Shown in pieces: positions 41,650 through 62,083 of a stretch of 64,000 nucleotides of DNA (positions are counted from its first letter, which is position 1; the number at the start of each line of letters is the position of its first letter). This DNA comes from Candidatus Omnitrophota bacterium (GTDB lineage Bacteria > Omnitrophota > Gorgyraeia > B26-G9), in NCBI GenBank assembly GCA_043805415.1, contig JAZDHZ010000034.1, positions 101,478-165,477 on the forward strand. Reading direction: 5' to 3'. The position numbers were made by a program, and so were the translations under genes. The notes below the pieces were generated by a model, which saw nothing but the letters and a program-made list of their open reading frames with translations, did not search any database and was not told where the DNA came from.

Positions 41650-41722
41650 TAAAACCTTTTTAAATTAATACAAAAGTGTGTAACATCTTTATTTACTATT
41701 AGTTAATGTTTAATGCGAGGAG

Positions 41723-46275: not shown

Positions 46276-46731
46276 ATGGAAAAAAAAATCATTGCGTCTA
46301 ATAAGCGGGCAGCGCATCGCTATGAGATTATTGAAAAAATCGAAGCTGGCATTGAATTGCAAGGCACAGAGGTTAAATCACTCAGAGCCAATCAGGTTGA
46401 CTTAAAAGACAGCTTTGCCAGAATTGACGGCGGACAGATTTTTTTGCATAGTTTATACTTAAGTCCCTATGAAAAAGCAAGTTATAATAATGCTGATCCC
46501 AAAAGAGTCAGAAAGCTTTTACTGCATAAAAAGCAGATTACCAAGCTGTTTGCGAAAATGCGGGAAAAAGGCTATACTTTAATAGCTTTGAATATTTACT
46601 TTAATGATAAAGGCCGGGCAAAAGTCGAACTGGCTTTGGCCAAAGGCCGCAAATTGTACGATCAGCGGGAAAAGATTAAAGATAAAGAAACTGAACAGCG
46701 TTTGCGCAAGATAAGCAGCATTCGGAAATAA
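46276..46731 (+). CDS. smpB: SsrA-binding protein SmpB
   Basis: 'NKRAAHRYEIIEKIEAGIELQGTEVKSLR' and a basic C-terminal tail. Adjacent to tmRNA. Confidence 0.95.
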   Translation: MEKKIIASNKRAAHRYEIIEKIEAGIELQGTEVKSLRANQVDLKDSFARIDGGQIFLHSLYLSPYEKASYNNADPKRVRKLLLHKKQITKLFAKMREKGYTLIALNIYFNDKGRAKVELALAKGRKLYDQREKIKDKETEQRLRKISSIRK

Positions 46732-46765: not shown

Positions 46766-46813
46766 TTTACTTTAAACTATAAGCCATAAGCTATTAGCTA
46801 TCGACTTTTTTTT
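46750..46813 (+). terminator. long-loop hairpin plus U8 between smpB and ssrA
   Basis: UCGAUAGUCAAUAG (46750-63) pairs with CUAUUAGCUAUCGA (46791-804) at 13 of 14 positions. A C and then U8 (46806-13) follow. Confidence 0.5.
46777..46804. repeat. heptamer tandem repeat (CYATWAG)x4
   Basis: ctataag ccataag ctattag ctatcga. Confidence 0.75.
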
Positions 46814-46819
46814 AGATTG

Positions 46820-47252
46820 GGGGGTGAAGGGTTTCGACTTATGTGGATGTTATAAGGGCAGCATGTCGAGGTGGTCGGGAGGCCTCGTTAAACACCTGGC
46901 AAAATAATAAATGCTGAAACTAAAGTTCCAGTAAGTGTAGATGCACTTCTTGAGAGAATTGGATCGGGCATTGCTCATCCGACTTTCACAGGATTTGTAC
47001 CTGCAGCAGTGTTACTTTAATAAAATAAAGTAACCCGTTTTTTGGCCTTTTGTCTGGGGGGTCAGAGAACGTCATTTACAGGCTCGCTTTACCTGGTTGG
47101 TTTTTGACAGGTAAGGTTAAACACTCAAAAGCTGCCTGTTTAAGTACCTCGCCTATTGGGGATTTAAACAGAAAGATAAACAATAGGCTAAACATGTAGA
47201 TACTCTTATTTGTCGCTTAAGGACGCGAGTTCGATTCTCGCCACCTCCACCA
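46820..47252 (+). ncRNA. ssrA: tmRNA (SsrA), about 433 nt
   Basis: 5' GGGGGUGAAGGGUUUCGAC. The 3' end is the tRNA-like GGACGCGAGUUCGAUUCUCGCCACCUCCACCA, and the acceptor GGGGGUG/CACCUCC pairs. Internal tag frame GCU(46913)...UAAUAA(47018-23). Confidence 0.9.
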
Positions 47253-47261
47253 AATAAACAA

Positions 47262-47298
47262 AAACCTCTGTTCTGAGAAATCAGGGCAGGGGTTTTTT
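47262..47298 (+). terminator. conserved terminator-like repeat, copy 1 (immediately 3' of tmRNA)
   Basis: AAACCUCUGUUCUGA-GAAA-UCAGGGCAGGGGUUUUUU. The stem uses G-U pairs, so it folds only in the + sense. Confidence 0.7.
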
Positions 47299-47469
47299 GT
47301 GTGCGGAGATCAGGGAGATTTCTCCTGTTTTAAGAGAATAAATTTGGTTTTTAATCAGCAGAGATTAATCGTTTTAACGGTTTTTTTATTTAGCTTTTTT
47401 AAATAAAAAGAGTATAATTATAATGTGGAAAATTTAATTTAAACTTAAACAGTCAAAAAGGGGGGGGGT

Positions 47470-47886
47470 ATGAACAAAATTAAGGCAAAGCTTATTCTGG
47501 GTATTTGTGTTTGTTTTCTTCTGTTTGCGGCCTCAGTGGTTAAAGCCGAAGAGGGATCAACAATTGTTAATCAGCTGAGCAATGAACTGCAGCATGAAGG
47601 TAAGATTACGTCTGATGAGGCAAAGGCGCTAGAGCCTTCGATTCAAGAGATGATTGAAAAAGGGGAAAGTAAGCAAGAAATAAAAACTTTTATTGCTCAG
47701 GCAGTAGCCCAGGCTCATGCCCAAGGACTTAAAGGCAAAGATTTGGCAGCTAAAGTTCATGTTGCAATTCAGGAGCGCAAAATGCAGAGGACTGAAGCTA
47801 AAACAGCGGCTAAAGATAAAAGTAGTAAAACGGACGGAGCAACTAAAGGAAAAAGCAGCAAAAAGAATAGTAAAGGAAAAAAATAG
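47470..47886 (+). CDS. small secreted Lys/Ala-rich protein
   Basis: Signal peptide 'LILGICVCFLLFAASVVKA', then a low-complexity basic tail. The ribosome-binding site is a G9 run. Confidence 0.6.
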   Translation: MNKIKAKLILGICVCFLLFAASVVKAEEGSTIVNQLSNELQHEGKITSDEAKALEPSIQEMIEKGESKQEIKTFIAQAVAQAHAQGLKGKDLAAKVHVAIQERKMQRTEAKTAAKDKSSKTDGATKGKSSKKNSKGKK

Positions 47887-47936
47887 TTTAAATAGTTAGA
47901 GATTGTTCTGGAAACGCTTATGCTTGCGGAGGAATT

Positions 47937-48470
47937 GTGAAGTATTTACTAGTTTGTGTTTTTTTTGTTTGCTTTGTCTGCGGCTGCGCCGGAGCAATAC
48001 AACCGTATATACTTTATTCCGATGCCGGGGTATCGCCGGAAGACATTGTGGTATTAACATCAAAAAACAATGCTGAGGTTAAAGAATTAGTTTGCCAAAA
48101 AATAGGATCATCTGCTGGGCAGCTAATCTCTATGGCGGTTGTTAAATCTGTCGATGGAGAGACCGGAGATTCTACGTTGCCGTATATGGGGCAGGTTTTT
48201 AACAGTGGGTTTAATTGTCAGTTTGAAATTCAATTAATGCCTGGGAAGCATCAATTAGTAGTATTGCCGAATTGTTATCTGGCAAGCGGAAGAGATTCCG
48301 TGCCTATGACTATCAATGCCCTTGCCGGTCATCACTATTTTATCGGGAATATTCTCGAGATTCTTCAAGTTCCGAGCCTGGGTGTACGCGGAAAATACCG
48401 CTGGCGGCCGTTTATTGTTGATATGACAACAAATGAAATGGTCAGTCTTTATCCATTTATATCTCACTAA
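47937..48470 (+). CDS. putative lipoprotein
   Basis: GTG start after a GGAGG Shine-Dalgarno sequence. 'LLVCVFFVCFVCGCAGA' is lipobox-like (VCGC). Confidence 0.6.
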   Translation: MKYLLVCVFFVCFVCGCAGAIQPYILYSDAGVSPEDIVVLTSKNNAEVKELVCQKIGSSAGQLISMAVVKSVDGETGDSTLPYMGQVFNSGFNCQFEIQLMPGKHQLVVLPNCYLASGRDSVPMTINALAGHHYFIGNILEILQVPSLGVRGKYRWRPFIVDMTTNEMVSLYPFISH

Positions 48471-48482
48471 TCAGTGGGGTAT

Positions 48483-48504
48483 AAGGCAGCACAATACTTA
48501 ATTA
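48483..48504 (+). repeat. 22-nt dispersed element 'AAGGCAGCACAATACTTAATTA'
   Basis: The reverse complement recurs at 48779-48800 (AAGGGGACACAATACTTAATTA, 19 of 22 identical with a 15-nt perfect core). An interrupted copy lies at 52848-52887. Confidence 0.7.
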
Positions 48505-48525
48505 ACCGATTATGCTTTTTAAACT

Positions 48526-48566
48526 AAACCTTTGTTCTGATAATTTATCAGGGCAGGGGTTTTTTT
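48526..48566 (+). terminator. conserved terminator-like repeat, copy 2
   Basis: AAACCUUUGUUCUGA-UAAUUUA-UCAGGGCAGGGGUUUUUUU. Confidence 0.7.
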
Positions 48567-48778
48567 GTTTTGGGCGGGGATTATCGCAAAAATAATAGCA
48601 GTATTTCGAGACCTTTTTAGGGAGCCAATTAAAAATCCAAACTTTTTATGCTTACTTTCTGTAATATGATGTGGGTATAATGTATCTTAAGTGGACTATG
48701 GAAATAGTTCGGATATTAGAGGCAATTGAGGTAGTTAATTAGAATTAATGTCCCAATACCTGATCTTACCCTGTTAAG

Positions 48779-48800
48779 TAATTAAGTATTGTGTCCCCTT
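48779..48800 (-). repeat. inverted copy of the 22-nt element
   Basis: The + strand reads TAATTAAGTATTGTGTCCCCTT. It sits 15 nt upstream of the -35 of the 48991 gene promoter. Confidence 0.7.
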
Positions 48801-48814
48801 ATATGATGTTAACG

Positions 48815-48843
48815 TTGTAAATTATTGAATTATATGGTATATT
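48815..48843 (+). promoter_or_regulatory. extended -10 promoter for the 48991 gene
   Basis: TTGTAA (48815-20), 17-nt spacer, TGg TATATT (48838-43). Confidence 0.55.
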
Positions 48844-48990
48844 TTACAGTCCAAGTTGAGGCTAATTAATAAAGTTATTATAAATATAAGAACAGGTTAT
48901 AGCATTTAATTGCTGGTTTGGACTTTAAAGATATAAGTTGTTTTCTCAAAACTTATTAGACGAAATTAATTTTTTCTGGAATAGGCAGGT

Positions 48991-51357
48991 ATGAGAAAGT
49001 TTAAAAATATTTTCATAAAGGTACTTATAGCAGCGTTTCTGTTGCAGACGCCATCTGCTTTTGCGTTGAAAAGTGCCCAAGACAGTGTATGTGCCAACGC
49101 GGGTACAGTTTTTCTGGCGCCTTATCTGACCATTGATGCCACATCAATTCAAACGAGTGCCTCCAAACTATATGATTTTTCCCAACAGGCTGCTTTACAA
49201 CCTGTTCTCGAAACTCTTACAGATAATTTCGGATGGCCGGAAGAGATTGCTGTTTCTGTTAGCCAGCGAGTGGCGTTTACACTCAGTCAAACAGAGACAT
49301 CAGTAGATTATCGGCCGGATATTGCCATTATTGCTACCGCGACTACGTCAGATCAACAGTATATCCGTTATGTTTTTCCGTTAAACCAGGAAAATTCTAT
49401 TAGCGTGGTTGATCAAGACATGAGGATAATCCGTTTTGTCTGGAATGGAAACGAGTTATCAATCGCGGAAATTGGAACAGGGGATCGAGGAACTGTGCGC
49501 TATGCGGATCAACAGATGCTTTTATCGCTTAAGGATCACATTAAAGATAGAATGGAAGAACTGCTTAAAAGAGATTCTGTAACATTAGAAGACTTGCAAG
49601 AATTATTGTGGATGGACCCCCTAACTTTTTTAAAAGACCAAGACTATGAGCCGCGACCCTTAGAAAACGACGAAATATTTTTTCTCATGAAGCGTTTAAA
49701 CGATTTATTCTTTGAATTGAAGGTTGATGATCCATGGGTTCTTCCCAAGATTAACGATCCTAATGCTTTGGCGGCAGATGATCCGTATCACCTGTTAACC
49801 TCCAGACGACGTGTCCAGATTGATGAGCGTGTTGTTGATCATGGAATTTTGTTTGAAGCAATGAAGTTAGAAGCTGATGAGTTTGCTCTGTTTCTCGCTC
49901 GGGATGCGATGAGCGCGCATGAATTTATCACCCATCTGCAAACCTTACAAGGCAACTCACAAGCCCTGTCAGGATTAGTTTATCAGCCAGGGCTTCGCAG
50001 CGCGTTTCAAACTGATTTTGACAAGAAACATAAGCGGACAGCATATGTGGATGAGGAAAGTTTAGAACATACCATGAGAAGAATAACCCAGGCTTTTCAG
50101 GGCACTTTGCAAAAATTGGGAAAGCCTGTTCAGAGAATAACCCGAGGCGAGGCTGATAATAAAGAATTTAACGCTGATGAATACAATGAGTTTTATTCGC
50201 TTTTTAAGCAGAAAATAATCGAGCTGATTAATTCCGAAGAGCATGTTCGCAAAGAATCGGAACTTATATTGAACCAGATAAAAAGAGCGATTCATGGAGA
50301 TTTTAAGAAGATCCGGGTTATTGATTTGGATGCGACAGGGAAAACAGCGCTTTATGTAAGAGCGGTTATTGAGTATTATGCTGAGAAGGGAGAGCTTGAT
50401 GTGGAGAGCGCTGAAGTATTTATCGGCAACGGACGTGGAAGCTCGGTAAATGTTCCCAAGGTGCGTCAAGGCGCGACAGACCCTCAGGTGAGTTTTGTTG
50501 ATTTGAACTGGCCATTTATTGCTGAGCAAAGAGATGCTGCTACGGGAATGGTTAACTTTAGAGTTACTAAGTCTCGCTATCGCTTCCTTGAGCTTACGTA
50601 TCAGAGTTTGCGTTTGTACAATGAAGCAATCAGTTTTTTTGAAAACGGGCAGAAAGGCTCAGTGTCCAGGCTTTCAAAGAAAGAGAATGCGAAGGCGTCC
50701 AAAGCTAAACCAAATAATATACTGGATATGACAAAGTATGAATTTTTAAACCAGTATCAGAGAAACGGGTTTTTCCGTCCAGGGTTTTATGGAAGCAAAC
50801 GATTGGCAATTGAAGCGCGGCTCAATGAGTGGTTTGGAAAAGGTAATTGGCAGGAGCGTTATGCGATCAATGGGAATCTTAGTACTAAGGATGAGATGCT
50901 TGTGTTTTATGAAGATGCCTATGTCGCGTATTTACGGGATAATAGTCCTCTAGCCACTTGGTTGGAAGAAACAGCAATCGACGTATTTGATAATAGTACA
51001 TCTAATCTGGATAGCAGGATGGATTATTCCATTCAGGAAACGACAAGCAACCATTACCAGGATATTGCTATACGCAGAGCATTTGATCGTTTAGGCAAAA
51101 GTTTTGGAGGTTCTGAACTGATTCAAGTTCGCGGAAAGGATTCGAAAGGGGCTAAATTAAGTCCAGGGGTGGTACCTTTTAATAAGCCGTATCTGCTTTT
51201 CAATCCTCCGCTCAAAGGTTGGTGGAACAAAGGTTCTATCGAAGAATTTTTGCAAAGCTCAAAAGTTATTGTTATCCTGCCGGCTACCTTTAATATTGAA
51301 ATAAAAAGTGCTGTTCAATACAGCAGAGAGCAGTTTGTTATCGAGCATTCGATATAA
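48991..51357 (+). CDS. terminal-signature family protein, function unknown
   Basis: Leader 'IFIKVLIAAFLLQTPSAFA', N-box 'FLAPYLTIDATSIQ', tail 'EHSI-stop'. Confidence 0.8.
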   Translation: MRKFKNIFIKVLIAAFLLQTPSAFALKSAQDSVCANAGTVFLAPYLTIDATSIQTSASKLYDFSQQAALQPVLETLTDNFGWPEEIAVSVSQRVAFTLSQTETSVDYRPDIAIIATATTSDQQYIRYVFPLNQENSISVVDQDMRIIRFVWNGNELSIAEIGTGDRGTVRYADQQMLLSLKDHIKDRMEELLKRDSVTLEDLQELLWMDPLTFLKDQDYEPRPLENDEIFFLMKRLNDLFFELKVDDPWVLPKINDPNALAADDPYHLLTSRRRVQIDERVVDHGILFEAMKLEADEFALFLARDAMSAHEFITHLQTLQGNSQALSGLVYQPGLRSAFQTDFDKKHKRTAYVDEESLEHTMRRITQAFQGTLQKLGKPVQRITRGEADNKEFNADEYNEFYSLFKQKIIELINSEEHVRKESELILNQIKRAIHGDFKKIRVIDLDATGKTALYVRAVIEYYAEKGELDVESAEVFIGNGRGSSVNVPKVRQGATDPQVSFVDLNWPFIAEQRDAATGMVNFRVTKSRYRFLELTYQSLRLYNEAISFFENGQKGSVSRLSKKENAKASKAKPNNILDMTKYEFLNQYQRNGFFRPGFYGSKRLAIEARLNEWFGKGNWQERYAINGNLSTKDEMLVFYEDAYVAYLRDNSPLATWLEETAIDVFDNSTSNLDSRMDYSIQETTSNHYQDIAIRRAFDRLGKSFGGSELIQVRGKDSKGAKLSPGVVPFNKPYLLFNPPLKGWWNKGSIEEFLQSSKVIVILPATFNIEIKSAVQYSREQFVIEHSI

Positions 51358-51458
51358 CAAGCCATGACTGAGCCTGGATGCAGTTGCTTGAGACTATTTT
51401 GTTTATGTGTAATCCCCTTTTTGCTTAAGTAATAATCGCTAACTTTCTTTGGATATAG

Positions 51459-51493
51459 CCCCAGTTACCTATCGTAGCTGGGGATTTTTATTT
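51459..51493 (+). terminator. intrinsic terminator candidate
   Basis: CCCCAG-13 nt-CUGGGG followed by AUUUUUAUUU. Confidence 0.5.
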
Positions 51494-51737
51494 GTTTAAT
51501 AATTAAAGTATAATGAGTTATAATATATTTATTATAGATTGAAAAATTTTGGATATTTGGGTCACTTGAGAAAGGAATCGAAAATTAAAACTTCCTGAAT
51601 AAGGAAATGCGCTAAAGCATTTTTTGAGTAAATATGCCTATTTAACGTTGGATATGAGAATTGAAAATATAGGCGGATTTTGACTCGTGCGGTTTTAGTG
51701 TTTGTGATGTATTCGGGAATATTATTGGGAAATAAAT

Positions 51738-52823
51738 ATGATTAAATTAAAAATAAAATTTAGCATATTGCTTTTAGCTTTATGCCTTGTGTTTATCATC
51801 GGCTCTAAGGTTAACGCGGCGGATAACACTCCTTTTGGTGTCGGCACATTCCTTTCTTGGAACCATGAGTGGAATAATTATATGTACAATAATGAAGAGG
51901 AAGTAGATAAGGCTGTAGCGATCCTAAAAAAGCTCGGAGTTTCCATTATTAGAAATGAATTCTCTTGGAATGAAATAGAATCAAATCAAGGGGTTTTTAA
52001 CTTTGAGCGATATGATTATATTGTAAAGGTCTGCCAGGAGAAGGACATTGAAATATTAGCTATATTAGGATTTTCAGCTCCATGGACAGGAAAACAGTGG
52101 AATGATGCTCCGACCGATGAAACAGCATTCCTGAATTATGTGAAGGTTGTTGTGCGACGCTATAAAAATTCAATAAAATATTGGGAATTTTGGAATGAGC
52201 CGGATACAAACCTATACTGGAATCCGCAGGACAAAATGAAAACATATACACAAATGCTAAAGAAAGTGTATAAAACTATTAAAGAAATTGATCCCTCCGC
52301 CGTAGTTGTTTTAGGTGGATTAGCAAACAGTCCCTATTTTTCCTTAAAGAATGTATTGAAAAATGACGGGGCTGACTACTTTGACATTGTTAATATCCAT
52401 CCCTATGTAAGCCCGAATAATGGCGAGGGGATAAAGCAGGTGAGATCTTTACTGAATAGTATAGATAAGGAACTAGTTAAACGTAATCTTAATAAAAAGA
52501 TCTGGATAACCGAAATAGCATGTCCTGGCATAGACCAATCCAGCGCAAGCAAATGGTGGCTTGGTGAATCTCAAAATGAGCAGCAACAAGCTCAATTTTT
52601 AAATGAAGTCTATTCTTTAATAGATACGCATAAAAATGTAGAAAAAATATTTTGGTCAATGTTTCGGGATACAGATCATTTTAAGGATGGGGTTGATTAT
52701 TTTGGATTGCTGTCTTGGGATTATGGCCCCAAGACAGCATATTTTGCCTATAAGCAGCTGATTGATGATGCTTATAAAAAAAGTGAAACAGGTCTTACCC
52801 CGAATAATAAAATATATAAATAG
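51738..52823 (+). CDS. secreted clan GH-A glycoside hydrolase (GH5/GH39-like)
   Basis: Signal peptide. 'YWEFWNEPD' (acid/base NEP) and 'IWITEIACPG' (nucleophile TE). Confidence 0.65.
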   Translation: MIKLKIKFSILLLALCLVFIIGSKVNAADNTPFGVGTFLSWNHEWNNYMYNNEEEVDKAVAILKKLGVSIIRNEFSWNEIESNQGVFNFERYDYIVKVCQEKDIEILAILGFSAPWTGKQWNDAPTDETAFLNYVKVVVRRYKNSIKYWEFWNEPDTNLYWNPQDKMKTYTQMLKKVYKTIKEIDPSAVVVLGGLANSPYFSLKNVLKNDGADYFDIVNIHPYVSPNNGEGIKQVRSLLNSIDKELVKRNLNKKIWITEIACPGIDQSSASKWWLGESQNEQQQAQFLNEVYSLIDTHKNVEKIFWSMFRDTDHFKDGVDYFGLLSWDYGPKTAYFAYKQLIDDAYKKSETGLTPNNKIYK

Positions 52824-52913
52824 TCAAATCCTCTTGCCTGGATATACGGGGGCACAATTGAAAATGCATGGATGCAATCCTTAATTATCCAATCATGTTT
52901 TTTTAACAAACTA

Positions 52914-52951
52914 AAACCTCTGTTCTGAGAATTTATCAGGGCAGGGGTTTT
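52914..52951 (+). terminator. conserved terminator-like repeat, copy 3
   Basis: AAACCUCUGUUCUGA-GAAUUUA-UCAGGGCAGGGGUUUU. Confidence 0.7.
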
Positions 52952-53146
52952 CTGGTTTTAGGCTTCAGAAAGTTAATTAGCCGGATTATTTGCTTTTTTA
53001 GCTGAATTCAGGTATATTTTTGGTAGTTTTTGTTAGGCTGATTTTGCTGTTTATCGTTAATTTTCAAATGGTTGCGTTCCTGGCAGCTGTTTATACGCTA
53101 ATTTTCAGACATATCCGCCTTATTCATAATTAAGAAAGCAAAAAAA

Positions 53147-55489
53147 ATGATTTATCAAATAAGAAAATTTATTTTATTGCTCCGATTTATATGCCTAATC
53201 CTGGGACAGTTATTGCTGATTAATGGCTTTGCCTGGGCAGGGCAGATGAATACTTTGTCTCCGGTAGCAGTTGTAAGCAATGCTAATTTTAAAAAAGCTT
53301 TTGATGATAATTTAGACGAGATATACGCGCTTAATAATAAAATTAAAAGCATCAAACAGGTTTATAGCATGATCACGGAATTAGATGCTTATCCGGGTTT
53401 TACCCGAATGCTTGATTCAGATGATGGATACAGAGATATCGGCATTTTTCTGGTTTCTGATCTTGATGAGGTAAATAAAATTATAAACATATTGCCAGTA
53501 GATAAACATTCTGAGGTTTGTGAGCTGGGCAGCGGCATTGGTAATGTCAGTGCTTTATTTGCCGCCAGAGGGGCAAATGTAATTGGTTATGAAATTGACC
53601 AAAAGCTGGTATGGTTAAGTAATAATATAGCGCAAATTGATTTAAAAGATATTCTTGCTCCGGAAAGAATAAAGTTTGAGCGCGCGAATTTTTTAAGCAA
53701 GGATCTTTCTAAATTTGACATTATATTCTATTACTGGAACAGCATGGTTTCTGAATATAAAGATGAGCTGCAGAATAAAATTTTAAAAGAACTTAAGCCC
53801 GGTGCTTTATTGGTATTGTTCGGGGTGAGCAAGGATAAAGCATATTTCTCGGGATTAAAAGAGATGACTGGCTTACCGGGCTATGAATCAATAAGCGCGT
53901 ATGCCAAGGTATATGCGCAGCCGGATAAACCTATTGCCCAAACCAATGAACAATCAAAGCTGCAATCATTTCGCGATGATTTAGATTCGCCGGATACAGA
54001 GGCGCGTTTGCAGGCAGCGCTTGCTTTAGCGCAAAGCAAGCATGCTGATGATAAAGCATACGCGATTATTAAGGAATCAGCAATTAATAAAAACTTAACG
54101 CTGAATGAAAGAATAAGAGCGGCGAGATTCTTAAGCGATTCAGACCGGATGGAATATGCCGGGCAGCTTATAAGCGATGAACAACAGTTTGCCAGAATAG
54201 AACGCGACGATAAAAAAGACTTTGACAGTTTGGAGCTATCAGCGGCAAGTCTAGAGCAAGTTCAAGGGCAAATAAAAATGATATCAGGCATAGATAAGCA
54301 AGTTGCTGATGAACTTATGCTCAAGGCGGGTAAACTTGCTTTTTTAAGTGAGGAGCTTTCCCGGCTTAGTAACGCGATAAGATATTTTGAGGGAAATTGG
54401 CATGCGCTTTTAGAGGAAAAACTGGATAGCGAATATGGCTATGCCAAAGAAGTAAATGAGGCAATGATCGCGGACGATATGCTAGGGGTTGAGCTTTTTA
54501 ATGCCGTAGATTATGTAAAAGCTTATTTGGTTTGCCAAAAGTTAATATCCCGGCTTAGAGATAAAGGGATAATAGTTATGGGCGGAGATAGAGAATGGTT
54601 TTTGCTTGAGGCTTTTCAGTATATTTTTAAGAGAAATTATACAATGGAACAAGCAGAAAAGATGCTGGAAAATAAATGGGAAGTATCAACAGCGGCAATA
54701 AGAGCAAAAGAAATATTTAAAGATTTAATAACAATTGGCCTTAGCCCGAGTGGGTTTATGTCAGAAGTGAAAATAGGATTTTTCGCTAATACGGCGCAGC
54801 AGTTCATCTATCGGGGTTATGACGACGCGAATCATCTTGAATACGCGCCCGGCCCGAATTATGATGCCAGAAATATTTCCATTGGAGTGGAGAACAATAT
54901 TGGTTCAGTAAATGCCATGCACATTAATCTTGGGGTGCCCTGGGCCTCAAAATATATCTGGGCATCATATTTGGCATTGCATAATTTTATTGATTCAAAT
55001 ACTATGGCCAAAGGTTATTATGATTATTTTTATGATCAGCAAATCAAAGACAGCAGTCAATTATTCCCCGGCCAGCGCAGGGTTTCTTATATCGGGGTTT
55101 GGACCGAAGACCTTGATGATCTGGATTCAATAATCGAGACTTTTGTGCCCTTGAGCATTGGTTTAAATAATTATATGTCAAAAGAAAATCCGGAAATAGC
55201 GGAAATCTGGAAAACTTTTAGAATCGAATTTGAAGAGATTATAAATTCGCAAAATGATCAACAGTTAAAAACGGAATTTTTTGAACAAGCCAGGATGGTA
55301 AGATTCGTGGAATTGATATCGGAAAAAAATCGCGGCAATATTTTTTACCAGCAAGTTGAAAATCTTATTCAAAAAACAATCAAACAAATTAATCATAATC
55401 TCGCGAATCAAAACAAGAATCAGGCTTTAATCAAACATTCCCCGGAATTTCTTCAATTTCCAGAAACCGCGGTACTTAATTCAATTTAG
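53147..55489 (+). CDS. terminal-signature family protein with SAM-dependent methyltransferase domain
   Basis: Leader 'FILLLRFICLILGQLLLINGFAWA', N-box 'TLSPVAVVSNANFKKAF', tail 'LNSI-stop'. Motif I 'VCELGSGIGNVSALFAARGANVIGYEID' at nt 53518-53600. Confidence 0.8.
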   Translation: MIYQIRKFILLLRFICLILGQLLLINGFAWAGQMNTLSPVAVVSNANFKKAFDDNLDEIYALNNKIKSIKQVYSMITELDAYPGFTRMLDSDDGYRDIGIFLVSDLDEVNKIINILPVDKHSEVCELGSGIGNVSALFAARGANVIGYEIDQKLVWLSNNIAQIDLKDILAPERIKFERANFLSKDLSKFDIIFYYWNSMVSEYKDELQNKILKELKPGALLVLFGVSKDKAYFSGLKEMTGLPGYESISAYAKVYAQPDKPIAQTNEQSKLQSFRDDLDSPDTEARLQAALALAQSKHADDKAYAIIKESAINKNLTLNERIRAARFLSDSDRMEYAGQLISDEQQFARIERDDKKDFDSLELSAASLEQVQGQIKMISGIDKQVADELMLKAGKLAFLSEELSRLSNAIRYFEGNWHALLEEKLDSEYGYAKEVNEAMIADDMLGVELFNAVDYVKAYLVCQKLISRLRDKGIIVMGGDREWFLLEAFQYIFKRNYTMEQAEKMLENKWEVSTAAIRAKEIFKDLITIGLSPSGFMSEVKIGFFANTAQQFIYRGYDDANHLEYAPGPNYDARNISIGVENNIGSVNAMHINLGVPWASKYIWASYLALHNFIDSNTMAKGYYDYFYDQQIKDSSQLFPGQRRVSYIGVWTEDLDDLDSIIETFVPLSIGLNNYMSKENPEIAEIWKTFRIEFEEIINSQNDQQLKTEFFEQARMVRFVELISEKNRGNIFYQQVENLIQKTIKQINHNLANQNKNQALIKHSPEFLQFPETAVLNSI

Positions 55490-55737
55490 CAGAAAGATTA
55501 TAAAGGATAATAACCGCGAGCTTGTTGTTAACCTAAATGGATATATTTTTTTTAGTGTAAATATCGCCTATTTTAAACAGGGAATATGGTGAGCAAAGAG
55601 TAAATTAAGTGCGGGAAATAAGGGGAAATCCCGGTTTATTTGCGCGATGTTTGTTTTCTACTGGAGAATAATAAGTTTGCATGATATAATACATTTTACA
55701 TAATAAAACTATGACAGATAATTAGTGAGCAGGATTT

Positions 55738-56805
55738 ATGCTTTTTAAGAAGAAAATAGAGATAATATTATTAGTAGTGCTTTTTTGTGTTTTATCAGGA
55801 TGTGCTGGTTCTCAAAAGGGGCTAAGGTTAAACAAGGACAAATATCGATCTATTGCTCAGGTTTGTGCTGATATTAATTTAACCTGGGATTGGGACGGTT
55901 TTTCCAATATTATCACTGTTAAAAATCTTAAAGTCAGCGCTAAGTTGTATCCGGGCAGCAGCTTAGTTCTCTATGATAATCAAGTATGTGATTTAAAAAG
56001 CCCGGTAATAATAGACCAGGGTATAATCAAGGTGCCAGCGTCTTTTGCTAGGTTGTTTGCTGGAAAAGTAGTGCCTTATAGAGAAACAAAAGCAAAGCCA
56101 AGCAATTTCAGTATTCGGAAAATTGTAATTGATCCTGGCCATGGATCCCAAGACCCCGGAGCGATTGGGACCAAAGGAATTCAGGAAAAAGATATTGTCC
56201 TGGATATTGCCCTGCGTTTAAAAAAAGAACTGGTTGCTGATGGAATGGAAGTTGTCTTAACCCGGCAAACAGATGTTTTTCATGCTTTGGAAAAAAGGGC
56301 GGAAATCGCTAATCAGGCAAAAGCGGATTTTTTTATCAGCATCCATGCTAATGCCGCGGAAGCAAAATCCGCCAATGGCTTTGAGGCCTACTTTTTATCA
56401 ACAGCTTATGATGATTTTAGCAAAGCCGTGCAGATCAGGGAAAACGCGGTTATTAAATATGAAGAAAACGCGGATTATAATAAAGCCGATGACTTAAATG
56501 CCACGCTTTGGGATATGATCTTGTCGGAAAATAGAATCGAGTCAATTGAAATGGCAAACTCGATTGCCGAAGAATTAAGAAAAAGCTTAAAGTTAAGAAC
56601 CCGCTTTGTAAAAGGCGCGAAGTTTTTAGTGTTAAAAGGAACGCGGATGCCGGCGGTATTACTGGAAGCCGGGTATTTGAGTAATCCGGAAGAAGGGGCG
56701 AAATTAAATAACCCTTATTATCGTCAGATGCTTGCTGAGTCAATTGCTCAGGGAATTATAAGTTATAAAAAAATGTTTGAACTAAGTGATGGGTTTAGCA
56801 GATGA
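55738..56805 (+). CDS. N-acetylmuramoyl-L-alanine amidase (Amidase_3), lipoprotein
   Basis: Lipobox 'VLSGCAG'. 'IVIDPGHGSQDPGAIG', 'FISIHANA'. Confidence 0.85.
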   Translation: MLFKKKIEIILLVVLFCVLSGCAGSQKGLRLNKDKYRSIAQVCADINLTWDWDGFSNIITVKNLKVSAKLYPGSSLVLYDNQVCDLKSPVIIDQGIIKVPASFARLFAGKVVPYRETKAKPSNFSIRKIVIDPGHGSQDPGAIGTKGIQEKDIVLDIALRLKKELVADGMEVVLTRQTDVFHALEKRAEIANQAKADFFISIHANAAEAKSANGFEAYFLSTAYDDFSKAVQIRENAVIKYEENADYNKADDLNATLWDMILSENRIESIEMANSIAEELRKSLKLRTRFVKGAKFLVLKGTRMPAVLLEAGYLSNPEEGAKLNNPYYRQMLAESIAQGIISYKKMFELSDGFSR

Positions 56806-57611
56806 ATGATCCAAGGCCAATTGGAATTTTTGATTCAGGAATGGGCGGGTTGACTGTGGTTAAAGAAGTCATGCGCAATCTTCCCAATGAAAAGATTGTT
56901 TATTTCGGCGATACAGCGCGGGTGCCTTATGGTCCGAAATCCAAAGAAACAGTTATCCGCTTTTCGATTGAAAATATTTTATTTTTGCTGAAAAATAATG
57001 TAAAACTGATTATTGTCGCCTGTAATACCGCCTCGAGCGTAGCTTTATCGGCTATAGAGAAAAACTTTAAAGTGCCGATAATGGGAGTAATCGAGCCCGG
57101 GGTCAGTGAAGCAATCCGGATAACGAAAAATAAACGCATTGGGATCATCGGCACAAAAACCACGGTTAATAGTCTGGCTTATGAAAAACAAATAAAAAAA
57201 ATTGACCCCAGGATCAAAGTTTATAGCAGCGCCTGTCCTTTATTTGTGCCTTTGGTTGAAGAAGGCTGGCTTAAGACAAAGATCACCAAAGAGATTGTGG
57301 CTAAGTACTTATTGCCGCTTAAAAACAAAAATATTGATACAATTGTTCTGGGATGCACGCATTATCCCTTGCTTAAACCAGTGATAAAAGATGTTTTAGG
57401 GCCAAACGTTAAGCTGATTGACTCAGCAAGACAAGTAGCTTATCAAGCAAAATACATTCTTGAAACCCAGGGTTTATTAACAACTAAAAAAAATACTAAG
57501 CAACCCAATGTTTATTTTTATGTCAGTGATGAACCTGACAATTTTGCCCATCAGGGTCAAAAATTCCTTGGTTTTGCCTTGAAAAATGTAAGGAAGGTAG
57601 CTAATGTTTGA
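56802..57611 (+). CDS. murI: glutamate racemase
   Basis: 'IGIFDSGMGGLTV', 'VACNTAS', 'LGCTHYP'. 4-nt overlap with the amidase gene. Confidence 0.95.
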   Translation: MNDPRPIGIFDSGMGGLTVVKEVMRNLPNEKIVYFGDTARVPYGPKSKETVIRFSIENILFLLKNNVKLIIVACNTASSVALSAIEKNFKVPIMGVIEPGVSEAIRITKNKRIGIIGTKTTVNSLAYEKQIKKIDPRIKVYSSACPLFVPLVEEGWLKTKITKEIVAKYLLPLKNKNIDTIVLGCTHYPLLKPVIKDVLGPNVKLIDSARQVAYQAKYILETQGLLTTKKNTKQPNVYFYVSDEPDNFAHQGQKFLGFALKNVRKVANV

Positions 57612-57972
57612 AATCAGCGTGATTATGGATTTTAGCGCGGCGCATAATTTAAGAGATTATAAAGGCAAGTGTGAGAATCTGCATGGACATAACTGGCAGG
57701 TAGAAGCGGTTTTTGCCGCAGAACAGCTGGCTAAAGGCGATATGGTAATGGATTTTAATGCGGCAAAGAAAATGCTGAAAAAGCTGCTGCAGTATTTTGA
57801 CCATGGCTATATTAATGAAACTGAATATTTTAAAAAATATAACCCGACTTCGGAAAACATTGCCAAATTTATTTTTCAAACTCTGGTTAAAAAAGTAAAA
57901 AAATATAAATGTATTGTTAAGCAAGTTAGCGTTTGGGAAAGCCCGCGGAGTAAAGCAACATACTACGAGTAA
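57604..57972 (+). CDS. queD: 6-carboxy-5,6,7,8-tetrahydropterin synthase
   Basis: 'FSAAHNLRDYKGKCENLHGHNW'. Confidence 0.9.
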   Translation: MFEISVIMDFSAAHNLRDYKGKCENLHGHNWQVEAVFAAEQLAKGDMVMDFNAAKKMLKKLLQYFDHGYINETEYFKKYNPTSENIAKFIFQTLVKKVKKYKCIVKQVSVWESPRSKATYYE

Positions 57973-57986
57973 TGGGGATTACTCGT

Positions 57987-58021
57987 AAATGACAAATTAC
58001 AAATGACAAATTACAAATTCA
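57987..58021. repeat. heptamer tandem repeat (AAATKAC)x5
   Basis: aaatgac aaattac aaatgac aaattac aaattca. It contains the queC ATG (58003). Confidence 0.8.
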
Positions 58022-58692
58022 AAAAAAACAGAAAAAAGAAGGCTGTTGTTCTATTGTCCGGAGGATTGGATTCTTCGGTCAGCTTGTATTATGCCTTAAG
58101 TAAAGGTTATGAGGCGCATTGCCTGACTTTTGATTATGGCCAAAGGCATAAAAAAGAGATTGAGTTAGCGCGGCAAATCGCCAAAAAAGCGAAAAGTAAA
58201 TGGCAGCTGGTAAAAATCGCGTTGCCCTGGAAAGGCTCATCTTTACTGGATCGAAAACAAAAGATTCCCCAGCAGAGAAAAATTGACGCGGCAGTGCCAT
58301 CGACTTATGTTCCGGCAAGAAATATTATTTTCTTAAGTTTTGCCGCCTCTTTTGCTGAGAGCGTAAATGCCCAGGCGATTTTTATCGGCGCAAATGAAAT
58401 TGATTATTCCGGTTATCCTGATTGCCGGGAGGAATTTTTAAATGCTTTTTCCCTGGCTTTGGAAAAAGGCACAAAATGCGGAATACAGGGATTTAAGACG
58501 AGAATTCGCGCTCCCCTGGTTAAAAAGAATAAACAGCAGATTGTGAAATTAGCTGTGCGTTTAGGAGTGCCGCTGGAATTAACCTGGTCTTGTTATCTGG
58601 GCGGTAAAAAACCCTGCGGCGTGTGTGACAGTTGCCGTTTGCGGCAAAAGGGTTTTGCCCAAGCAAAAACGAAAGACCCGGCAGGATGTTAA
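58003..58692 (+). CDS. queC: 7-cyano-7-deazaguanine synthase
   Basis: 'AVVLLSGGLDSSV' and the C-terminal 'CGVCDSCRLR' Zn cluster. Confidence 0.9.
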   Translation: MTNYKFKKNRKKKAVVLLSGGLDSSVSLYYALSKGYEAHCLTFDYGQRHKKEIELARQIAKKAKSKWQLVKIALPWKGSSLLDRKQKIPQQRKIDAAVPSTYVPARNIIFLSFAASFAESVNAQAIFIGANEIDYSGYPDCREEFLNAFSLALEKGTKCGIQGFKTRIRAPLVKKNKQQIVKLAVRLGVPLELTWSCYLGGKKPCGVCDSCRLRQKGFAQAKTKDPAGC

Positions 58693-59366
58693 AAGCTAAA
58701 ATATCGGAAATATTTTTTAGTCTTCAGGGCGAAGGGATTTACGCCGGCACGGCGCATGTTTTTATCCGGTTTTTCGGCTGTAATATTAAGTGTCGATATT
58801 GCGACACAAATAAAAACAGTTTTAAAGAATATAGTGTTGCCCAACTGATTGCCCGGGTCCGGAAACTAGTAAAAGAGCATAAGGCAAAGTATATTACCCT
58901 AACCGGCGGCGAACCGCTTTTACAAGCTGATTTCATTAATCGGTTTTTAATTAAATCGCAATCAAATAAAACTCGGATTTATCTGGAAACAAATGGGCTG
59001 CTGTGTTCTGAGTTTTTAAAAATAAAAAATCAGGTTGATCTTGTGGCAATGGATTTTAAGCTGCCTGGGGCAACCGGGCTGAGTGATTTTTGGGCTGAGC
59101 ATGAGCGGTTTTTAAAATTATGCAAACCAAAGTCGGTATTTATTAAAGCAGTTATCAGTCTGAAAACAAAAGCAGCGGAAATAAAAAAAGCAGCGGAATT
59201 AATCAGCCAGGTAAATAAGGATATAGTTTTGGTATTACAGCCAAATCATGATGAATTATCTCCTGAGCTGATAAAAAAAGCCATGCTTTGGCAAACAAAT
59301 AGCCAGCAGTATTTAACTGATGTCAGAGTAATTCCGCAGATGCATAAACTTATAGGAGTCCGTTAA
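58686..59366 (+). CDS. queE: 7-carboxy-7-deazaguanine synthase (radical SAM)
   Basis: 'ISEIFFSLQGEGIYAGTAHVFIRFFGCNIKCRYCDT'. ATG 58686 overlaps the queC stop. Confidence 0.85.
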   Translation: MLKAKISEIFFSLQGEGIYAGTAHVFIRFFGCNIKCRYCDTNKNSFKEYSVAQLIARVRKLVKEHKAKYITLTGGEPLLQADFINRFLIKSQSNKTRIYLETNGLLCSEFLKIKNQVDLVAMDFKLPGATGLSDFWAEHERFLKLCKPKSVFIKAVISLKTKAAEIKKAAELISQVNKDIVLVLQPNHDELSPELIKKAMLWQTNSQQYLTDVRVIPQMHKLIGVR

Positions 59367-59779
59367 TGAAAAAGCAAACACAAAAGAAAAGCTTGTATGA
59401 GAATCTGCAAAAAGACATTCGCGACTTAAAACTGCCGGATATTGAAGTTTGGCAGAATATGTACGCGGATAAAGATTATTTGATTCAAATGGATGTGCCG
59501 GAATTTACCTGTATCTGTCCCAAAACCGGATTGCCGGATTTTGCTAAGATCACGATCGCGTACACTCCGGATAAATCCTGTCTTGAGTTAAAATCATTCA
59601 AGCTGTATATTAATGCCTATCGTGATGTCGGGATTTTTCATGAACATGTGGTTAACAAGATCTTAGATGATTTAGTCATAGCTTGTAAACCCCGTTCAAT
59701 CAGCGTTAAGGGTGAATTTAATCTCCGCGGGGGAATTAAAACCAGTGTCTCGGCTGAGTATAAAACAAGGAAAAAATAA
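59366..59779 (+). CDS. queF: NADPH-dependent 7-cyano-7-deazaguanine reductase
   Basis: 'EFTCICPKTGLPDFAKITIAY', 'FHEHV'. Confidence 0.9.
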   Translation: MKKQTQKKSLYENLQKDIRDLKLPDIEVWQNMYADKDYLIQMDVPEFTCICPKTGLPDFAKITIAYTPDKSCLELKSFKLYINAYRDVGIFHEHVVNKILDDLVIACKPRSISVKGEFNLRGGIKTSVSAEYKTRKK

Positions 59780-59783
59780 TAGG

Positions 59784-60623
59784 ATGAGAAAAATATCATC
59801 TGAATTAATTAAAAATAAAGTGACAAAACTGGCTATTGAGGCAAATACCAAATTGCGTTCAGACGTATTGGTATTGCTTAAAAAAGCATTATTAAAAGAA
59901 GACCGGGCTTTATCCAAAAAAGCGATTGCCGCGATTATTGAAAATGCCAGGATTGCTTTAAGCCGGAAATTGGCGATTTGCCAGGATACCGGCATGCCGG
60001 TAGTATTTGTCGAAATGGGAAGCAATGTTTATATTAAAGATAATATTAATCAGCTTATCACTCAAGGCATAAGCCTGGGCTATAAGCAGGGCGGCTTAAG
60101 GGCATCGATTCAAAAAGATCCGATATTCAGACAAAGTAAATTAGCTTATGACCCGATTATTACGCATATTGATATTGTAAAAGGGGATAAACTTAAAATA
60201 ACTGTTTTGCCTAAAGGATTTGGCAGCGAAAATAAAGCGCAGGTTAAAATGCTCAATCCCACTGCTTCTATCGCGGAGATTGAGGATTTTATTGTTCAGG
60301 CTGTGAAAGTTGCCGGAGCTGGAGCTTGTCCGCCTTATATTATCGGCGTGGGCATTGGCGGCACTCAGGATTATGCTTGTTTGCTGGCAAAAAAAGCATT
60401 ATTAAAACCAATTACAGCTAGAAACAGGAATAAAGAATTAGCGGGATTAGAGCAAAGCTTACTTGAAAAAATCAATAAACTTGATATCGGGCCATTTGGC
60501 TTTGGGGGTAAGGCAACCGCGCTTAAAGTAAATATTTTAACTTATCCCACGCATATAGCAGGATTGCCGGTCAGCGTTAATATCAGCTGTCATGCTTTGC
60601 GCAGCGCGAGTATTATTATTTAA
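59784..60623 (+). CDS. class I fumarate hydratase / Fe-S hydro-lyase, alpha subunit
   Basis: 'ICQDTGMPVVFVE', 'GVGIGGT'. ATG 59784 preferred over the track start at 59712. Confidence 0.85.
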   Translation: MRKISSELIKNKVTKLAIEANTKLRSDVLVLLKKALLKEDRALSKKAIAAIIENARIALSRKLAICQDTGMPVVFVEMGSNVYIKDNINQLITQGISLGYKQGGLRASIQKDPIFRQSKLAYDPIITHIDIVKGDKLKITVLPKGFGSENKAQVKMLNPTASIAEIEDFIVQAVKVAGAGACPPYIIGVGIGGTQDYACLLAKKALLKPITARNRNKELAGLEQSLLEKINKLDIGPFGFGGKATALKVNILTYPTHIAGLPVSVNISCHALRSASIII

Positions 60624-60647
60624 ATTAAAAAACTGATATAGGATAAA

Positions 60648-61178
60648 ATGAATAAATTAAATGTAAGTTTAACCAAAGAAAGCATAAAAGACCTGGTTGT
60701 CGGTCAGGAAATTCTGTACACTGGAGTTTTATATACAGCCCGCGATCAGGCGCATAAGCGTTTGATTGAGCTGATTGATACAGGTAAAAAACTCCCTTTT
60801 GATATTCAGGATAAAATAATTTATTACTGCGGTCCGACTCTTGGCCTGAAAGGCCAGATAGTGGGTTCCTGCGGGCCGACAACTTCCAGCCGCATGGATA
60901 TGTTTACTCCCAGGCTTTTGGAAAACGGATTATTAGCCACTGTGGGCAAAGGAGAGCGGTCGCTTGAGGTTATTAACGCGATCAAAAAAAACAAGTCAGT
61001 TTATTTTTCCACTTATGCCGGCTGCGGCGCGCTTTTAGCTCAATATGTGATAAAAAAACAGCTGGTTTGTTTTAAAGACTTAGGCGCGGAAGCTGTTTTC
61101 GCGTTTACGGTCAAAGATTTTCCATTAATTGTGGCCATTGATTCCAAGGGGGGTAATATTTATGCCAAGAACAGCTAA
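60648..61178 (+). CDS. class I fumarate hydratase / Fe-S hydro-lyase, beta subunit
   Basis: '[11 protein letters not shown]', 'GPTTSSRMD'. Confidence 0.85.
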
Positions 61179-61896
61179 AAAAAAGCCGGATGCTTTGCGC
61201 AAGGTTTGCATTACCCGAAATTATATGAAATATGCCGAGGGTTCCTGTTTGATTGAAGTCGGCAATACAAAAGTTATCTGCACTGCTTCGGTTGAAGATA
61301 AAGTGCCGGCTTTTTTGCGGGATAAAGGTACCGGCTGGATAACTGCCGAGTACTCAATGCTGCCCAGATCCTGTCTTACCCGCAGTCCGCGGGAATCAAG
61401 CAAAGGCAAGGTCGGCGGCCGGACGCATGAAATTCAGCGCTTGATCGGCAGATCGCTGCGCACAGTAGTTGATTTAAAAAAATTAGGAGAACGCACGATT
61501 TGGATTGATTGTGATGTTATTCAAGCAGACGGCGGCACACGCACAGCCAGTATTACCGGCAGTTTTGTCGCGCTGGTAGATGCTTTATACGCTTTGCAGA
61601 AAGCAGGCAAAATACAGTTATTTCCAGTAAAGAAATATGTCGCGGCAACTAGTGTCGGGATTGTTGCCGGAACGCCGACATTAGACCTTGATTATGAGCA
61701 GGATTCTAACGCTGATGTGGATATGAATGTTGTCATGACCTCATCCGGAGAATTCATCGAACTGCAGGGAACAGCAGAGCGCGTGCCGTTTAATCAAAAG
61801 CAGCTTATCCAATTAACCAAACTGGCGAAAAAAGGCATTGATAAACTGATCAAGCTGCAGAAAAAAGCCTTGGATGATTTACCATTTAACATATAG
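61162..61896 (+). CDS. rph: ribonuclease PH
   Basis: '[24 protein letters not shown]', '[16 protein letters not shown]', '[18 protein letters not shown]'. ATG 61162. Confidence 0.95.
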
Positions 61897-61906
61897 AATA
61901 ATTATT

Positions 61907-61934
61907 AATGACAAGTTATGAATTATGAGTTTAA
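61907..61934. repeat. heptamer tandem repeat (ARTTATG-like)x4
   Basis: aatgaca agttatg aattatg agtttaa, just after the rph stop. Confidence 0.6.
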
Positions 61935-62020
61935 AAATAAAGAAGGTAAAAGTATTCAGCATATATAAAAAATTAAAAAACGCGCAAACACGATAACTCT
62001 AAAACTTTTTGTTATCAATT

Positions 62021-62048
62021 TGACTATAGACTATTAGCTATTAACTGT
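62021..62048. repeat. heptamer tandem repeat (WRACTAT-like)x4
   Basis: tgactat agactat tagctat taactgt. It shares the 10-mer CTATTAGCTA with 46791-46800. Confidence 0.65.
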
Positions 62049-62083
62049 GATCTGGCAACCGGTGAACTGGAGAACTCTTAGAA

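Follow-up and report, generated by a model that had tools for sequence, protein, structure and literature searches.

Direct repeats containing a predicted terminator at the edges of variable gene blocks downstream of ssrA in an Omnitrophota bacterium

The window, by which we mean the whole 64-kb stretch of Candidatus Omnitrophota DNA that was analyzed, carries the tmRNA gene ssrA behind smpB. Two small gene blocks of 1.2 and 4.4 kb follow, and then a long conserved flank. A hairpin-containing element lies next to ssrA and recurs behind each of the two blocks. The features are as follows, all on the plus strand:

46276..46731, + strand: smpB, SsrA-binding protein (Pfam SmpB, E 5e-54)
46820..47252, + strand: ssrA, tmRNA gene (ARAGORN; Rfam RF00023, 176 bits)
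47253..47315, + strand: copy 1 (ssrA type), composed of trailer AATAAACAA, hairpin (47262-47298), U-tract and tail GTGTGCGGAGAT
47470..48470, + strand: block A, two ORFs
47470-47886, + strand: block A gene 1, 138-aa secreted Lys-rich protein
47937-48470, + strand: block A gene 2, 177-aa putative lipoprotein
48481..48580, + strand: copy 2 (box-A type; nhmmer E 4e-25, covariance model 73 bits), composed of box A (~48489-48520), linker, hairpin (48526-48562), U-tract and tail GTTTTGGGCGGGGAT
48991..52823, + strand: block B, two ORFs
48991-51357, + strand: block B gene 1, 788-aa secreted protein
51738-52823, + strand: block B gene 2, PslG-like glycoside hydrolase (GH)
52856..52963, + strand: copy 3 (box-A type; nhmmer E 3.5e-32, covariance model 84.7 bits), composed of box A (~52870-52905), linker, hairpin (52913-52951) and tail
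52963..62713, + strand: conserved flank, assigned by Pfam and synteny
53147-55489, + strand: 780-aa methyltransferase-like gene that opens the conserved flank, followed by amidase, murI, queD/C/E/F, fumarase, RNase PH and Ham1 genes

A first-pass annotation of this DNA had reported three plus-strand copies of the hairpin, at 47262-98, 48526-66 and 52914-51, and both the copies and these positions were confirmed. The sequence TCAGGGCAGGGGTTTT was found exactly three times in the 64-kb window, and a search with the 5' arm AAACCTYTGTTCTGA returned the identical three sites. When up to three mismatches were allowed, two further matches to TCAGGGCAGGGGTTTT appeared, both of which were 5' arms on the opposite strand. 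The chance expectation for TCAGGGCAGGGGTTTT was ~0.57 matches, and none of 100 shuffles gave five or more. The hairpins are 37-39 nt long and consist of a 16-bp stem with a 4- or 7-nt loop, an A-tract upstream and a U-tract behind the stem, on the same strand as the upstream gene. Strand-specific folding had also been proposed, and the energies agree with it. The plus-strand RNA of copies 1, 2 and 3 folds with -24.7, -20.2 and -24.2 kcal/mol (z -6 to -7), the minus strand with only -14.0, -10.3 and -12.7 kcal/mol, because 4 of the 16 stem pairs are U-G. The three hairpins were the top-ranking terminator-like structures of the window, where most other gene ends have a weak structure or none.

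Conservation of the stem was then compared over eight copies from three genomes. All stem changes retain Watson-Crick or G-U pairing in the plus sense, and 96.8% of cells are paired, versus 48-66% when the partner is slid. Covariation statistics gave no significance for these copies; divergence is too low, there is one double change, and shuffles equaled the observed values. In the window one copy each follows ssrA, the 177-aa lipoprotein gene and the GH gene; copies in relatives come after ssrA, GH, FGase, AbiEii and antitoxin genes. With its stem-loop, its U-tract and its location at gene 3' ends, the hairpin is a predicted Rho-independent transcription terminator. In Rfam 15 only tmRNA and tRNA passed within the window, and a relaxed search of 47200-53200 gave only miRNA matches at chance level on the hairpin. 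The arms are nearly identical among the window copies. Moreover, the hairpin of copy 3 is identical at 39/39 positions to the ssrA hairpin of a relative (locus L020), while the flanking genes are 84-89% identical. Based on this identity, the hairpin sequence appears to be conserved beyond what pairing demands.

Similarity of the flanks had been noted in the first-pass annotation as well, but was understated for copies 2 and 3. These two share ~45 nt upstream, of the form CAAT[A/C]CTTAATTA..CATG[C/T]TTTTT..AAC, which contains the 35-nt box A, and a tail of ~20 nt downstream. Thus copies 2 and 3 are elements of ~100-110 nt. The ends of these elements are not mutual inverted repeats, and no duplicated flanks were seen in the alignments, so that features of a MITE were not found. 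A fragment of the tmRNA 3' end was present neither at copies 2 and 3 nor elsewhere in the window. Several identities of box A were considered and rejected. As a decayed tmRNA 3' end, it would be represented by AAGGACGC, which copy L029c of a related contig has in almost the register of the tmRNA; this sequence is missing from the other copies, the resemblance is non-significant (p ~0.03 as a rough estimate), and this reading was not accepted. RNAalifold predicted the main hairpin alone and no RNA structure in box A. A promoter-like TTGAAA-17-TTAATT is present in only two copies, and a small ORF spanning copy 2 meets an immediate stop in copy 3.

Copy 1 lies at the 3' end of the tmRNA, as had been claimed. 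The tmRNA ends at 47252, and the hairpin of copy 1 therefore begins 10 nt past its CCA end. In L007/L020, whose SmpB is 95% identical, the same hairpin follows directly after the tmRNA, so the relative also appears to use it as ssrA terminator. L024 (SmpB 91%) has a variant hairpin copy 670 nt past the tmRNA, behind an inserted GIY-YIG gene, plus a further, diverged one behind a toxin-antitoxin pair. From its sequence, copy 1 is predicted to terminate ssrA; it also marks the left boundary of a variable region.

The comparison of ssrA loci that the first-pass annotation had proposed revealed that the right side of ssrA varies among relatives. Orthologues of smpB are 86-96% identical in relatives with the same upstream synteny, and the order GH116-144aa-smpB-ssrA is kept, while beyond CCA(AAT) each relative differs. 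At the ssrA loci of all relatives, homology with the window ends at 47252-47263, just past the tmRNA CCAAAT. In L027 the distance from ssrA to the amidase operon is ~0.4 kb, versus 8.4 kb in the window. L020 has a type I R-M system downstream of ssrA, L024 has toxin-antitoxin, MazG-like and helicase genes, and these defence-type islands begin exactly after CCAAAT. Further breakpoints coincide with the elements. Homology between the window and L029c begins at ~47256, right behind the tmRNA, and synteny with L036 begins at ~52963, ~12 nt past hairpin 3; L027, L033 and L035 are syntenic with the window from the amidase gene onwards. By these alignments copy 3 is the right edge of the variable region, and each copy borders a small accessory block that related genomes lack or carry elsewhere. 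Breakpoints fall in intergenic DNA, where terminators also sit, and some coincidence is therefore expected.

Four element copies are present on the contig L029, which may represent a second related population of the same metagenome. Its segment 18147-18794 is 89% identical to the window region that holds the 138-aa gene together with hairpin 1 and the gene's promoter region. The contig also carries an orthologue of the block B GH (85% amino acid and 89% nucleotide identity), again followed by a box-A copy. As far as these alignments tell, the two block genes travel with element copies, and their surroundings in L029 are different. Simple vertical descent of a gene together with its terminator would also account for the GH-element linkage found in two species. 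In the copy L029a, 16 nt of tmRNA end plus trailer (TCCACCAAATAAACAA) are joined to the hairpin beside AbiEii. The tmRNA part amounts to 7 nt, and this is the only copy with a tmRNA end fragment; by analogy, L029a looks like an attR.

The genes within the blocks gave no sign of foreign composition, for which the first-pass annotation had proposed a test. Their GC content and codon usage are ordinary and lie within the range of the window. The block A proteins had no matches in Pfam, NCBIfam, PHROGs or PADLOC. The 788-aa gene has its own terminator at 51459-51483, unrelated to the repeated hairpin. Its product had been called a family member; a weak N-terminal motif does exist, but it is the only basis for that label. 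The 788-aa and 780-aa proteins are unrelated, so that paralogy of the flanking proteins was rejected, and apart from the motif no paralogues were found within the window. Domains of integrases, transposases or other recombinases were absent from all window ORFs, and no recombinase gene was recognisable among the gene calls of L020, L024 and L029.

Overall, at least 10 copies were found across three genomes, all of them just past gene ends on the gene strand. Those in the window, L020 and L024 lie downstream of ssrA and bound variable content. Beyond the copies, ~140 kb of clade DNA was scanned in all (the remainder of the window plus loci of relatives). No further copy was detected in the other 58 kb of the window, nor in ~80 kb of other loci from relatives, including 18 kb (L033) of an element-bearing MAG. 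Exact-pattern scans of genome, metagenome and viral contig collections returned a single related organism, with one copy in the only related species representative, and nothing from viruses. An exact pattern misses diverged copies; thus no copy number is derivable from these collection scans.

The sequences compared show the anatomy of the element and the homology of its copies; they also show that relatives have it at ssrA, that the locus is variable and that breakpoints fall at the element edges. The reading we prefer, and to which we give about an even chance of being correct, is an ssrA-anchored array of terminator-containing direct repeats that delimit accreted or reshuffled modules. Here the home copy of the hairpin would end the tmRNA gene. 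Hairpin, short trailer and tail (~60-65 nt) would form the direct repeat, present three times in the window, with the extra conserved 35-nt box on the left of the non-ssrA copies. The layout would be ssrA-R1-(two genes)-R2-(two genes)-R3-core, the repeats marking the block edges. The blocks would most likely have been brought in or reshuffled via recombination at or in the repeats, carried out by a recombinase in trans or by homologous recombination between copies. Recombination at the repeats would retain a strong terminator at each block's 3' end and at ssrA. The first-pass annotation had suggested either serial cassette insertion or a mobile or recombining terminator module. A recombining terminator module next to ssrA fits the variable locus, the copies at breakpoints, the relative's terminator and the traveling genes; the absence of tmRNA-end repeats and of an integrase or transposase does not speak for insertion. 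Against the array of direct repeats we also count the lack of a recognisable recombinase gene, the ordinary composition of the blocks and the L029 contig, which carries no ssrA, as well as the GH-element linkage and the intergenic position of the breakpoints discussed above.

Serial insertion by island integrases that were since lost, with the copies as attL/attR at the ssrA 3' end, would be the classical form of such an array. ssrA is a known island target and tandem repeat arrays are documented (PMC3146451; PMC11915505), and both the islands starting exactly after CCAAAT and the attR-like L029a would agree with it. Copies 2 and 3, however, lack the repeat of the tmRNA 3' end that defines such islands and are not duplicates of that end, and no integrase or remnant was found. 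The blocks measure just 1.2 and 4.4 kb with ordinary composition; they code for secreted proteins and for a glycoside hydrolase that is common in the phylum. We regard this classical origin as very unlikely, and the earlier suggestion of serial insertion was not upheld in this form. The resemblance to tmRNA island arrays is nevertheless considerable, except that a terminator would be the repeated unit and no recombinase gene is visible. In Dehalococcoides, tandem ssrA islands are bounded by ssrA repeats and have a further conserved motif on the island side, and some are without integration genes (PMC3146451). As in that system, a direct-repeat array lies within a few to tens of kb downstream of a single tmRNA gene, strain-specific blocks lie between the repeats, an extra motif is found on the island side, some blocks have no integration genes, and relatives carry defence genes at the same spot; box A may be comparable to the island-side arm beside their ssrA repeats. 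In contrast, trailer and terminator are repeated here and the last ~20 bp of the tmRNA gene there. Moreover, no serine or tyrosine integrase was seen here, the blocks are very small, and their composition is native.

If the element were a dispersed intergenic repeat specific to the lineage, similar to REP, MITE or ERIC elements, and served genome-wide as a generic terminator at many operon ends, the ssrA cluster and the link to variable DNA would be sampling effects. We consider this improbable, yet the strongest competitor. It would account for copies that occur in three genomes, four of them on a contig without ssrA, always right after gene ends on the gene strand, with common flanks beyond the hairpin as dispersed repeats have, and with near-identical arms within the window as in homogenised repeat families. 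REP/BIME, ERIC and Correia-type repeats, which act as terminators or mRNA stabilisers, are likewise short, conserved, imperfect palindromes that occur several times per genome at the 3' ends of genes, and they can mediate rearrangements (PMC2817692; PMC3184786). REP/BIME-type repeats are defined by more than 100 copies per genome across the chromosome, whereas in the DNA scanned the copy number appears low and local, with none in the ~80 kb from relatives or the remaining 58 kb of the window. No RAYT (IS200/IS605-like) or other transposase was found in the window, nor were terminal inverted repeats, target duplications, a composite BIME or an alternating BIME-like arrangement seen. The element also differs in its long non-palindromic box and in that one copy is the predicted ssrA terminator, and a dispersed repeat would not explain the tmRNA end fragment on one L029 copy. 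No mobility at all would be required if a good terminator had been duplicated locally, or copied by gene conversion, to neighbouring operon ends and then inherited vertically, the variable neighbourhood being due to fast rearrangement in the clade. GH plus element, and the 138-aa gene plus upstream hairpin, are each a conserved unit in two species. Synteny is also interrupted in L020, ahead of smpB, and in L033 and L035, ahead of the amidase gene; rearrangement is thus frequent in general. We doubt this explanation, which leaves the conserved box A, the L029a tmRNA fragment and the 39/39 identity between species unexplained and gives no reason why three independent breakpoints should coincide exactly with element edges.

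If the repeats of the array are exchange points, this would be a tmRNA-gene array whose duplicated site is the terminator and not the gene 3' end, and in which no block has its own recombinase. The known routes by which accessory and defence genes gather at ssrA loci would then be extended to an uncultured phylum about which little is known, and covariance model R1 or the 39-nt hairpin could serve as a simple marker of the flexible gene pool in Omnitrophota MAGs. As a generic repeated terminator, the element would be an ordinary finding, but still useful for operon annotation and as a warning on assembly breaks at repeats.

A bolder and rather unlikely extension of the array is that the hairpin doubles as the core recombination site, with imperfect 16-bp arms and an asymmetric 7-bp spacer, GAATTTA. 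A recombinase in trans would then exchange modules at ssrA, with box A as an accessory arm. Promoter-gene-terminator modules holding secreted proteins, glycosidases, toxin-antitoxin pairs or defence genes would be inserted, excised and reshuffled. The array would thereby be an Omnitrophota chromosomal counterpart of dif modules or integron cassettes. On Acinetobacter plasmids, dif modules carry accessory genes including toxin-antitoxin systems and are shuffled between replicons in a Xer-dependent manner (PMC6449649; PMC13141974). Like the blocks here, they are small modules without their own recombinase, bounded by short imperfect-palindrome sites. Their sites are 28-bp XerC/XerD sites of alternating orientation on plasmids, whereas here 16-7-16 hairpins with an RNA-type G-U asymmetry lie in direct orientation on a chromosome. 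Assignment as a dif site was rejected, as neither core motifs nor an integrase were found. Similarly, an integron attC site was rejected, since there is no intI, no attI and no R''/R' (RYYYAAC/GTTRRRY) core site in the element. Integron cassettes with attC share the order of gene(s) followed by a strand-specific imperfect hairpin in an array of fixed orientation. In contrast to these, the stems described here rely on G-U wobble pairs and lead into a U-tract, as in a terminator.

The three terminator-like repeats reported by the first-pass annotation were recovered at 47262-98, 48526-66 and 52914-51, all on the + strand. There are exactly three occurrences of their 3' arm, TCAGGGCAGGGGTTTT, in the 64 kb, and neither an nhmmer profile nor a covariance model, both built from all known copies, detected a further copy in the window. 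The RNA of each copy folds into a 16-bp stem that includes four U-G pairs. As had been proposed, folding depends on the strand, with -20 to -25 kcal/mol for the + strand versus -10 to -14 kcal/mol for the - strand. A T-run lies directly behind each of the hairpins, and no other terminator-like structure in the window is as strong. At most of the remaining gene ends such a structure is weak or missing, and the others found, e.g. at 51459-51483, are unrelated in sequence to the repeats.

The element extends beyond the hairpin that had been described, and two forms of it exist. Its copies and the adjoining genes are as follows.

46276-46731: smpB, upstream of the tmRNA gene
46820-47252: tmRNA gene (ssrA), downstream of smpB
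Copy 1, + strand, directly downstream of ssrA: tmRNA end, 9-nt trailer, hairpin and tail
48481-48580, + strand: copy 2, box A, linker, hairpin and tail
52856-52963, + strand: copy 3, box A, linker, hairpin and tail

Box A, an upstream box of ~35 nt common to copies 2 and 3, reads CAAT[A/C]CTTAATTA..CATG[C/T]TTTTT.AAC. These two copies, about 100-110 nt in total length, also have the linker AAAC(T)AAAACC and the tail TTTTTTTGTTTTGGGC in common. For box A, no conserved RNA fold and no Rfam match were found, and neither a promoter nor an ORF was convincing.

Pattern scans led to one related organism, represented by L007 (MAG JAHITY01) and L020 (a JGI contig), whose SmpB protein is 95% and whose smpB-ssrA DNA is 84% identical to the window. 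The same hairpin lies directly 3' of its tmRNA and is identical to window copy 3 at 39 of 39 positions. Five more ssrA loci were obtained via SmpB homologues. Across the loci of relatives the upstream order GH116, 138-144-aa gene, smpB, ssrA is kept, and in every genome compared divergence starts at the base past CCA(AAT). The DNA beside ssrA is variable, as a synteny check suggested in the first-pass annotation was meant to reveal: the distance from ssrA to the amidase-murI-queDCEF-fumarase block is ~0.4 kb in the relative L027 and 8.4 kb in the window. Downstream of ssrA, L020 carries a type I restriction-modification system, L021 a GIY-YIG gene and an HTH gene followed by more unannotated sequence, and L024 a GIY-YIG gene, a HigB-like toxin-antitoxin pair, a MazG-like gene and helicases. 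A variant hairpin with the same flanks lies 670 nt past the tmRNA in L024, its pairing retained via wobble-compatible changes and one double change. A second, diverged hairpin was detected directly past the toxin-antitoxin pair (12866-12925; covariance model 28 bits, E 0.002), so that this 0.7-kb module, too, has a hairpin on either side. Terminator anatomy and wobble-compatible evolution together give good support to the prediction that the hairpin is an intrinsic terminator.

Several features of these loci were observed besides. In the closest of the relatives with a hairpin, a group I intron (Rfam RF00028, 50.8 bits, E 7e-12; L020 3526-3795, corresponding to L007 ~6199-6468) interrupts the T-loop of the tmRNA gene, and ARAGORN misses the gene for this reason. 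Intron-split tmRNA genes are a known gene form (PMC11915505), found here in Omnitrophota. In L021 (7952-8503) and L024 (11445-11869) an 81-aa GIY-YIG gene, preceded by repeated AATTTGGTGTCCTCCAT segments, follows directly past the tmRNA CCAAAT; in L024 the ssrA-type hairpin stands behind it, as if the module were inserted between tmRNA and terminator. For the window tmRNA (tag region 46943-47023) ARAGORN predicted a long tag peptide, ALLERIGSGIAHPTFTGFVPAAVLL, that ends in LL and not in the usual ALAA; tags of relatives are similar and end in ALI or ALF. The smpB-ssrA spacer (46730-46810) is filled by period-7 repeats ATTAGCC/ATAAGCT in inverted blocks (hairpin -16.8 kcal/mol), which recur at L024 10506-10520 and 10961-10990.

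The PslG-like glycoside hydrolase between copies 2 and 3 has an 85% identical orthologue on L028/L029, another contig of the metagenome from which L020 derives. The 21-kb stretch L029 contains four element copies.

L029a: a hairpin joined to 16 nt (TCCACCAAATAAACAA) that match the end of the window tmRNA and its trailer exactly; adjoins an AbiEii gene
L029b: directly past the hydrolase orthologue; box A and decayed 3' arm
L029c: box A and hairpin, then a segment orthologous to window 47256-47895 (hairpin 1, promoter region and 138-aa gene), 89% identity
L029d: directly past AbiEii; box A and decayed hairpin

Two units, hydrolase plus element and element plus 138-aa gene, are therefore conserved between two species in differing surroundings. 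The period-7 repeats also occur here, immediately past L029a (2555-2645).

Against L029c, homology starts at 47256, right past the tmRNA end; to the left stands tmRNA in one genome and box A in the other. Against L036, a relative that has the 780-aa gene and amidase operon in common with the window, it starts at about 52963, 12 nt past hairpin 3, where the tail ends. Against all ssrA loci, homology stops at 47252-47263. The unshared DNA is therefore bordered exactly by copy 1 on the left and copy 3 on the right, and copy 2 splits it.

We interpret the repeats as an array anchored at ssrA and marking off accessory modules. The recombining or inserted module proposed earlier is partly supported, in that the variable ssrA neighbourhood and the borders at the copies were borne out. 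Classical islands are argued against by the absence of an integrase, transposase or RAYT domain from every window ORF, by the absence of a tmRNA fragment at copies 2 and 3, by unremarkable block GC content and codon usage, and by the types of protein encoded (a secreted Lys-rich protein, a putative lipoprotein, a secreted 788-aa protein and the PslG-like hydrolase, which is common in the phylum). A generic terminator repeat, dispersed through the genome, is the main competing explanation. No copy was found in the remaining 58 kb of the window, in L021, L026, L027, L031, L033 (18 kb, JAHITY MAG), L035 or L036, or in the 11 kb upstream of ssrA in L024; about 140 kb of copy-free DNA was examined in total. 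This restricted distribution is suggestive only, given a small sample whose members were in part selected via the element itself.

Among known systems, where tmRNA genes are frequent island targets generally (PMC11915505), the tandem ssrA islands of Dehalococcoides come closest to the array. They are bounded by ssrA-end repeats, which are flanked on the island side by an extra conserved motif, and integration genes are missing from some of the islands (PMC3146451). In contrast, the repeated unit of the window is trailer plus terminator, outside the gene, and its modules are tiny and without recombinase. The base-for-base match across species, together with arms that are almost identical among the window copies, suggests recent exchange, or gene conversion, or a sequence-specific constraint beyond pairing. 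Exchange could proceed by homologous recombination between copies or through a recombinase acting in trans, like dif modules.

Other observations concern neighbouring genes. The amidase (55738-56805) has a 100% identical counterpart among the proteins of an Omnitrophota MAG. A promoter-like box, CTTGTAA..TATGGTATAnTT, is conserved upstream of three secreted-protein genes (26023-26053, 41620-41650 and 48814-48844). The proteins have only a short N-terminal motif past the signal peptide in common (FLxPxLxI-like) and are probably the 'family' of the first-pass annotation. In the 780-aa protein (53147-55489), a methyltransferase-like region matches the PADLOC model mad2 (E 1e-12); its gene lies beside the amidase operon also in L036 and is absent from L027, L033 and L035. 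A 78-nt repeat of 74% identity (29273-29350 and 32615-32692) is common to the 5' ends of two giant genes that lie side by side (1100 aa and 2986 aa) and encodes similar N-termini.
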